A stretch of 64,000 nt of DNA from contig NGBS01001177.1 of the NCBI GenBank assembly GCA_002245135.1, positions 1-64,000 of the forward strand. Reading direction: 5' to 3'. This DNA comes from Proteromonas lacertae. Lineage: Eukaryota. Below are positions 51,781-53,610 of this stretch, piece after piece. Numbering within the stretch: position 1 is the first letter of the stretch; the number at the start of each line of letters is the position of its first letter. The translations under genes and the position numbers were made by a program. The notes under the pieces were generated by a model. The model was not told the origin of the DNA. It ran no database searches and was given only the letters and a program-made list of their open reading frames with translations.

Positions 51781-53610
51781 ATGGAGGAAAATGATGATGA
51801 ACTTATTGATAAATTTAACAAAGAAATTTTCAATTCTACAGTTGAGAACTCTAACACAGTTAAAGAAATAATAGAAAGATGTAAATTATCTGAAGAATTT
51901 AGTTTAAAAATGCTAAAGAATAGTCAATATTTACAATTTGTTCAAACAAACATAAAGAAAAGTGAAGAAGAACTTAATAGAAACTCATTTATGTGGAAAT
52001 TACTATCAATATTAACATCTCATGGTATGAATGAATATTTTTTCGATTGAATTTAGATTCTTTAGTATTAGTATTTATAGAGAATGAGATAGATGAAAAA
52101 ATATATTCTGTAATTATTAACCCTTTATGTAGATTGTTAAATACAAATACAACTGTAAAAACTGATATTTTATCTTCATTTTACAACCTAATTAGTAAAG
52201 ATAATGAGAGTATATATATATATATTTGAATATAATTAGAGAGAATATGTAACAAGACAGATTTATATAAATGTACATTTTGGTTATTGAAGTTAATGCC
52301 TGAATTTAAATCAGCTCCACCATCATCATTACTAATTCCATTTTATAATATTATATTACTATTCTGTGAAAATAATGGTATATATTTTAATTTATGTATG
52401 TATAGAACAATTTTTAAACTCATTAAAAAATAATGTTGGTATAATTGATGTTTATATGTTGTATCCAAATGAAAGAGTTAGTAAATTGTGTGAGAAAGTT
52501 TGTGAGTTGATTGATCGTATATATTCAAGTTATAATAGTAATTATTTATACAAAAAATAGCATTTAATGAAGAAGAAGATGATGATGATGAATGTGAAAA
52601 TACTGAAATAAGTAAAAGTGATGATAATTCTACAGATTCTGACAATCAACCCGCTAATACAAAACTTGATTTATATTTATTAAGAAAACATATAATGGAA
52701 GATGAAAAAGAAAAAACAGATGCCAAACCTTTAGAAATATATAAACAAAGAGAAGAAGAGATAAAAAAAGAATTAGAGAAAAATGATTATAAAGAGAATA
52801 TCGAAAAAGAGAGTAGAGCTCCAGATGGTGCAATTAATTCAAATAATAAAGTGAATGAAGATAGTTATTTATTACCACAAAATTCAATAAATCACCAGCA
52901 AATTGATTCTCATTCAATTCCATCATTATCTTTACCACCCACTTCAAATAAAATCAATTTAGTAGAAAGAGAGTTTAATGAAGTACTTAAAAAGAAGTTT
53001 GATGAATATATGGAAAATTTCTTGTATATTTTATTAATTTTTATATATTGTATGAATAGATGGTATGATTTTTCTATATTATATAATATAATAATATAGT
53101 GATGGATGGTATGTTTTTCATTTTTTTCTTTATATCTTTTTATATTATAATTATTTATATACTTCTAAACATATTATTATTATCTAATGTTTAATAGTGG
53201 ATCTCAGTATATTATTATCATTTTATATTTTTCTATAGATTGTATATTTCAATTAATTCATTATTATAATGGTAATAGGGAGTATTAAAGGAAAATTCTA
53301 TATTTCTTAATAGATCGTATATTTCTTATATCTATTGCATGTTTATAGTGATTATGTAGATGGAGTTATATCATATCCGTATGTTTTTTAAATTTTTATC
53401 TTCTTAATTTGTAGAATGTATAACATTTTATAAATCATTTCATAGAGAGTATTATTTTTGTTTATATTTATTCAATAGATGTGACACATAGTATATTATT
53501 ATACTGTTCTTATAAATAGCGGGTATTTTATCACATTTATATATAATTATAGAAATAAATACACAGTGACAATAGAAGATGGTGAAATTTTTTTTGAACC
53601 GTTACAATGA
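51781..53610 (+). CDS. Unknown protein whose C-terminal Zn-ribbon-like domain is encoded by an 11-microexon array (17 exons in total)
   Basis: Four ordinary introns join ORFs 51781, 52047, 52366 and 52695 in frame. Twelve further GT-AG introns (53024-53552) give ENFLCDGCGSQLESDYVDGVISYPIECDTYGNKYTVTIEDGEIFFEPLQ*. Confidence 0.78.

Follow-up and report, generated by a model that had tools for sequence, protein, structure and literature searches.

A predicted gene of Proteromonas lacertae, located in the 64,000-nt stretch of contig NGBS01001177.1 analysed here (hereafter the window), raises the question of whether the apparently non-coding sequence near its 3′ end is in fact a chain of codon-sized exons and, if so, whether these exons would be joined in full, skipped in combinations or left unused. 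The region in question, 53024-53552 on the plus strand, is resolved by tiling, chain searches, splice-site scores and coding scores into an array of 12 predicted phase-2 introns that separate 11 microexons, and the coordinates, intron lengths and exon sequences given in the preliminary description were all reproduced exactly on re-checking. The introns measure, in order, 36, 37, 89, 32, 37, 32, 32, 36, 28, 30, 29 and 30 nt (28-37 nt, with one of 89 nt), and all 12 segments begin with GTAT and end with TAG. The intervening microexons measure 3, 9, 9, 3, 3, 3, 30, 3, 3, 12 and 3 nt, seven of the 11 being a single codon in size. As had been claimed, every microexon is a multiple of three, every intron is in phase 2, and the joined frame remains open until TGA 53608-53610.

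A comparison with randomized and neighboring sequence reveals that such a tiling is exceptional. In chain searches that accepted GTA..TAG introns of 24-95 nt and intervening exons of at most 30 nt, the longest chain (12) is that of the array; dinucleotide shuffles yield at most 8, with none of 1000 reaching 12, and the other 529-nt pieces of the window (n = 475) yield at most 7. When the exons are additionally required to be multiples of three, these maxima drop to 6 for the shuffles and 5 for the other window pieces. A scan of the window for runs of 3-nt exons, of the kind that the preliminary description had proposed for the whole genome, detects the three-in-a-row pattern once, and none of 100 shuffles contains it. 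The array introns are mutually dissimilar (top z of 2.3 among 55 pairs, with the 89-nt intron excluded), which rules out recent copying of one intron unit. The array is present in the sequence and is not a product of chance.

No second array is found in the 64-kb window. Isolated candidate exons of 8, 6 and 12 nt lie between intron-like segments on the minus strand near 41642 and 20161 and on the plus strand near 27984, and these may be chance. A wider pattern scan returned 99 loci, and among the 100 loci put through the chain finder the 10 longest chains are all tandem repeats and none contains a homolog. Several viral loci (L007, L013, L033 and similar ones) carry 27-nt tandem repeats in phage contigs that, with as many as 9 units, look like intron-microexon chains; such repeats are a false-positive class for pattern scans of this kind.

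The window has a G+C content of approximately 26%, and 118 introns are predicted in it outside the array, mostly of 25-44 nt, with GTATAT donors and ATAG or TTAG ends. Of the array introns, ten score at or above the 10th percentile of this host set for splice sites, and a weak score of 7.9 bits is obtained for intron 9. The description of the array introns as being in the usual style of the host is partly circular, because the host introns are our own predictions, made by a purpose-written gene finder with a prior favoring GTAT. The phases of the 101 canonical predicted host introns number 60, 23 and 18, and the occurrence of all 12 array introns in one phase has a probability of 1e-9 at the host phase-2 frequency, or 0.002 for any one phase.

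The pieces between the introns differ in composition from the introns themselves, with G or C at 29 of 81 microexon positions versus 42 of 400 positions in intron interiors (Fisher p 1e-7). When joined, the microexons score +39.3 bits on a coding-versus-intron scale in the frame that continues from the upstream exon, versus -1.5 and +13.5 bits in the other two frames; as references, 78 intron pieces score at most 5.0 bits and the CDS median is 32.7 bits. The terminal exon (53553-53610), which contains the TGA, scores +24 bits in the same coding frame and -11.6 and -0.2 bits in the others. A reassigned stop codon was ruled out as a complication, as 17 long ORFs, which were selected to be stop-free, carry 198 CAA and 38 CAG in 7712 codons. 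Taken with the tiling, these signals suggest that the pieces of the array are codon-sized exons, which splicing probably joins without omission to form a small tail with cysteines.

The preliminary description had joined the microexons to an ORF beginning at 52695. The joined reading on the plus strand was retained, but its start was corrected to ATG 51781, which adds four upstream introns. The resulting gene model comprises 17 exons, with a total of 415 codons, or 419 if a later donor of exon 4 is used. Exon 1 (51781-52024) has an acidic start and is followed by exon 2 (52057-52209, 153 nt, phase 1-1), exon 3 (52240-52377, 138 nt, phase 1-1), exon 4 (52406-52528) and exon 5 (52561-53023, 463 nt, phase 1-2), the last of which encodes an acidic and charged segment. 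Exons 2-4 are all multiples of three (153, 138 and 111 or 123 nt), 14 of the 15 internal exons are symmetric, and the phase changes only at exon 5: phase 2 is found in 12 of the 16 introns, and the four introns upstream of the array are all in phase 1. The microexons make up 81 of 1245 coding nt (6.5% of the CDS), and the array lies entirely within the final 27 of approximately 415 codons. The purpose-written gene finder skipped the array and ended the gene at TAG 53097-53099, in agreement with the expectation that gene finders would miss it.

Searches with the upstream exons place the predicted protein in no family. Exons 1-5, scanned separately and unjoined, match no Pfam family at E 0.001, with only sub-cut-off matches at E up to 5; no significant PDB match is obtained with exon 2, with exon 4 or with a profile of exon 5; and in the Atlas, exon 1 has no usable match and P0012, a homolog described below, has only matches under 0.9. 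Exons 2-4 have what we take to be an ARM/importin-like look, which no search supported. Inspection of the acidic N-terminus reveals no hydrophobic stretch and no signal peptide, and tblastn detects no paralog in the 64-kb window. The single metagenome match to exon 1 (L001) was rejected as a chance similarity of 16 residues, antisense to an apparent prokaryotic GMP synthase gene.

A full HMMER scan with exon 5 returns two proteins, both Logan ORFs: P0012 (44% identical, E 5.5e-11, on a contig of 3709 nt) and P0013 (39%, E 6.4e-5, on a contig of 2116 nt), which could be orthologs or paralogs of the gene. A motif of approximately 23 residues (about 52810-52885, plus strand) has 14 invariant positions in the three homologs, which are otherwise 39-44% identical, and corresponds to no family found in Pfam or the PDB. 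Both are stored as incomplete proteins with intron read-through at their ends. In P0012, P0013 and the window protein alike, T-rich read-through begins at one shared x-Y-I column of the alignment; in the window this column is the G|TAT AT donor (phase 2) of the first array intron, and the three read-through tails are unlike in length and sequence. Read-through also bears on the donor of exon 4, which could be 52517 (GTAT) or 52529 (GTTAT), both in phase 1. In the part corresponding to window positions 52517-52560, P0012 keeps R-I-Y-S-S-Y and P0013 has S-Y, and this homolog alignment appears to favor a conserved non-consensus GTTAT donor at 52529.

The C-terminus of P0012, I-D-G-I-C, back-translates as a 29-nt intron with a TAG end, then an exon reading A(C/T)G, then a GTAT donor. 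The same type of string, an A(C/T)G exon followed by GTAT, occurs after none of the 101 predicted host introns, and the product of its positional frequencies is 5e-4. By this back-translation, which concerns one exon of eleven, P0012 appears to retain microexon 1 (53060-53062, ATG in the window). No other evidence than the P0012 ending comes from beyond the window, and this ending suggests that the array is old. An old array is also suggested by the mutual dissimilarity of the introns and by the sharing of the first donor, and probably of microexon 1, with homologs at 39-44% identity. A comparison of exon 5 with longer proteins yields no spliced homolog among 1279 candidates, a three-row profile identifies only P0012 and P0013 among 7993 scored, and 526 stretches of viral contigs contain no relatives.

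The predicted tail has the layout C-x2-C-G, followed by 17 residues and then C-x2-Y-G. Microexon 1 supplies two bases of the first Cys codon, microexon 2 (53100-53108, 9 nt) ends within the second Cys codon, and microexon 10 (53479-53490, 12 nt) holds the third Cys and ends within the Tyr codon. The tail resembles LysW (PF21344, a rubredoxin-type zinc ribbon) in having a C-x2-C-G knuckle, 17 residues and, close to the C-terminus, another knuckle-like motif that contains Cys, but its second knuckle is C-x2-Y, whereas LysW has two C-x2-C knuckles. On a LysW profile built from 51 members from 55 loci, the tail scores 8.0 bits versus at least 30.9 bits for the members; the profile aligns to the first knuckle only, and the full isoform ranks 71 of 1602 scored. 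Scores at least as high are obtained by 8 of 2000 residue shuffles and by 39 of 2000 shuffles with the Cys positions fixed. The tail does not qualify as a LysW family member, and on this profile its designation as zinc-ribbon-like is not upheld as it stood. One knuckle is plausible, and metal binding by the predicted tail would be a guess. No members of the CPXCG cysteine-rich family (PF14255) were recovered from the 61 and 41 genomes searched. An origin of the two knuckles by tandem duplication, considered because they agree at 8 of 12 bases and have the same boundaries, was ruled out, as an equally good pair is found in 500 of 500 codon shuffles.

The consequences of omitting microexons are uneven along the array. 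It had been proposed that any subset could be skipped in frame; the frame is indeed always kept, but a premature stop arises in 905 of the 2048 subsets. The accompanying proposal, that skipping recodes the junction residue, applies to part of the junctions: the residue is kept at 40 of 66 skip junctions, changed at 13 and replaced by a stop at 13, the junctions being mostly silent because a phase-2 skip alters only the third codon base. Among the 11 single skips, six are clean deletions, three are recodings and two produce stops, the latter being those of microexon 3 (53198-53206, 9 nt) and microexon 11 (53520-53522, 3 nt). Stop-free single skips are found for microexons 4 (53239-53241), 5 (53279-53281), 6 (53314-53316), 8 (53415-53417, directly before the weakest intron) and 9 (53446-53448), all of 3 nt, and for microexon 7 (53349-53378, 30 nt), and all 64 drop combinations of microexons 4-9 are stop-free with both knuckles intact. 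All skip stops arise at three split codons, namely those of both Cys of C-x2-C and of the Tyr of C-x2-Y, and the 13 stop-making junctions compare with 2.7 expected from host codons (P 0.014), an excess that depends on these three codons only. The native exon order is itself of the stop-free kind, and the exon neighbors look selected, because only 2000 of 50052 reorderings are stop-free.

The reading that we favor, with somewhat better than even confidence, is that the microexons are real and mostly all included, probably through stepwise removal of the introns, to give a predicted protein of approximately 415 residues with a cysteine-knuckle tail that may bind metal. Judging from the intron size and from general knowledge of short-intron genomes, splicing would proceed by intron definition, in which each intron of approximately 30 nt is recognized alone and removed in turn; if single short introns are recognized by themselves, a 3-nt exon never needs to be recognized as an exon. 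The main product would be the fully included form, because the native order avoids the stops made by 96% of reorderings and because skips at the split Cys, Cys and Tyr codons would truncate the tail. According to PMC8831610, coding microexons of plants are likewise included in most cases, often with late splicing of the introns on either side. Against the favored reading stand the stop-free loss of exons 4-9 in all 64 combinations and the alternative splicing of the described nank and MEG precedents. Taken by itself, constitutive inclusion does not demand that all 12 introns share a phase, and skipping must therefore matter or have mattered. The simplest cause of the uniform phase 2 would be selection on the reading frame, of which it may be a trace: the exons may have been born inside one ancestral phase-2 intron and hence be multiples of three, or occasional mis-skipping may have purged exons of other lengths.

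A possible but considerably less probable explanation is that tail diversity is generated by skipping, whether regulated or stochastic, much as in truffle nank and schistosome MEG genes: exons 1-3 and 10-11 would be fixed, since skipping the knuckle exons makes stops, and the six middle exons would be dropped in combinations to give up to 64 loop lengths. It is in keeping with the symmetry of all the microexons and with the stop-free character of every junction from exons 3-9, and it would be helped by the weak splice-site score of intron 9 and by the fact that two introns plus a 3-nt exon, at approximately 60-70 nt, fall inside the tail of the predicted host intron lengths; skipping of codon-sized microexons also has a precedent in the Tuber nank genes, as cited in PMC4986451. 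However, most skip junctions are synonymous (40 of 66), the introns have no repeat or rapid-turnover signature, and the gene has neither a paralog in the window by tblastn nor a signal peptide by inspection. The original proposal of a combinatorial diversification or splicing-control system does not hold as stated, given the destructive skips, but a narrower version limited to exons 4-9 survives. Its boldest form is a splice-tunable metal-binding tail, in which the exons carrying the cysteine ligands are locked, since skipping them turns split Cys or Tyr codons into stops, and the six exons between the knuckles, five of which are single codons, can be left out in as many as 64 combinations; we regard this form as doubtful. 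If it were true, a protist with 30-nt introns would adjust the loop of an intracellular protein one amino acid at a time, with an array kept since the split from relatives that have only approximately 40% identical homologs.

It is unlikely that the array is vestigial or mostly unspliced, with an early intron retained and translation stopping at TAG 53097-53099, or with exon 5 joined directly to 53553. The direct join is in frame, the stop is the one picked by a simple gene finder, Tyr replaces Cys at the fourth ligand position, and the downstream neighbor is a decayed clathrin fragment. However, all 12 donor/acceptor pairs are intact, the coding score of the array exceeds the CDS median, and among the three homologs the read-through tails vary in both length and sequence, as would be expected if introns were read through. 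Removal of a single 529-nt intron piecewise, with the spacers discarded, or a chance or repeat artefact, is very improbable, even though skipping all the microexons keeps the frame and phage-contig tandem repeats can imitate chains of up to 9 units, because the spacers have a frame-specific coding signal and a GC contrast, AG|GT zero-length sites are absent from the region, and the introns are not repeats and form a chain that 0 of 1000 shuffles reach.

The array gene can be set beside three described systems. The Tuber nank genes have codon-sized microexons with alternative splicing in an expanded NLR-like family, according to the work cited in PMC4986451. The gene shares with them the presence of multiple codon-sized exons (7 of 11 are 3 nt here), but nank genes, as far as that source describes them, have NACHT and ankyrin domains and belong to an expanded family, whereas the array gene has no Pfam domain in the exons tested, has no paralog in the window and yields stops when skipped at three codons. 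The aphid bicycle genes, according to PMC9168663, have many microexons, nearly all internal exons in phase 2, cysteine motifs and no known domain; they form families of hundreds, their products are salivary effectors that are secreted and carry CYC motifs, and their microexons occur throughout. The array gene likewise combines many phase-2 microexons with a cysteine motif and no known domain; however, it has C-x2-C rather than CYC, lacks a signal peptide, has its array at the end only and has upstream introns in phase 1.

The preliminary description had instead drawn an analogy with the micro-exon genes (MEGs) of schistosomes. According to PMC4015677, the microexons of Schistosoma mansoni MEGs make up to 75% of the CDS, most of these genes encode signal peptides, and their skip isoforms have been sequenced. 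The likeness is a run of symmetric very small exons in which the frame is kept on skipping; with 6.5% of the CDS in microexons and no signal peptide, the array gene shares only the symmetric microexons, and the analogy is not sustained as stated. SmVAL6, with large exons followed by small ones, is nearer in layout, as far as that source describes it. In its predicted form, the array gene lacks defining features of each of the nank, bicycle and MEG types, namely domains, signal peptide and CDS share. A literature search, judged by titles and abstract openings and with subscription journals mostly outside its scope, yielded no account of an array of this kind in a short-intron protist.

If the array is spliced, introns of approximately 30 nt split 12 of 28 consecutive codons, and the locus would be a natural substrate for studying how the spliceosome handles introns 3 nt apart, including the order of removal and the error rate, and for asking whether tolerance of errors or diversity is what selection for a uniform phase serves. 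It would be unlike the described arrays in its dissimilar, ordinary-sized introns, in its apparently non-secreted protein, in the splitting of functional-looking codons and in the many destructive skips. It is also an example of a type of coding sequence that is lost in gene calling, as seen in the fragmentary entries of the two homologs.

Pfam matches elsewhere in the window include the CFAP46 N-terminus, alpha-2-macroglobulin and TED, phosphatidylserine synthase and clathrin, a set suggestive of a protist with flagella. The array gene lies head to head, across a gap of approximately 130 nt, with a predicted CFAP46-type gene on the minus strand (43677-51652, approximately 2560 aa), which has an N-terminal TPR region and weak CHAT/C50 matches. 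Tail to tail with the array gene is a clathrin heavy-chain fragment (53700-54604, minus strand) that matches PDB chain residues of approximately 544-704; it has internal deletions, two in-frame TAA codons and what appears to be a frameshift, and has the look of a pseudogene. An alpha-2-macroglobulin-like gene with A2M and TED domains (34108-38903, plus strand, approximately 1565 aa) is present in this protist. The phosphatidylserine synthase gene (9452-11116, minus strand) has six predicted introns, and its closest named relatives are 42-43% identical; a cluster (P0001) from contigs of up to 15.7 kb encodes a 70% identical synthase in 421 uninterrupted codons, and on these predicted structures the relatives differ greatly in intron density.
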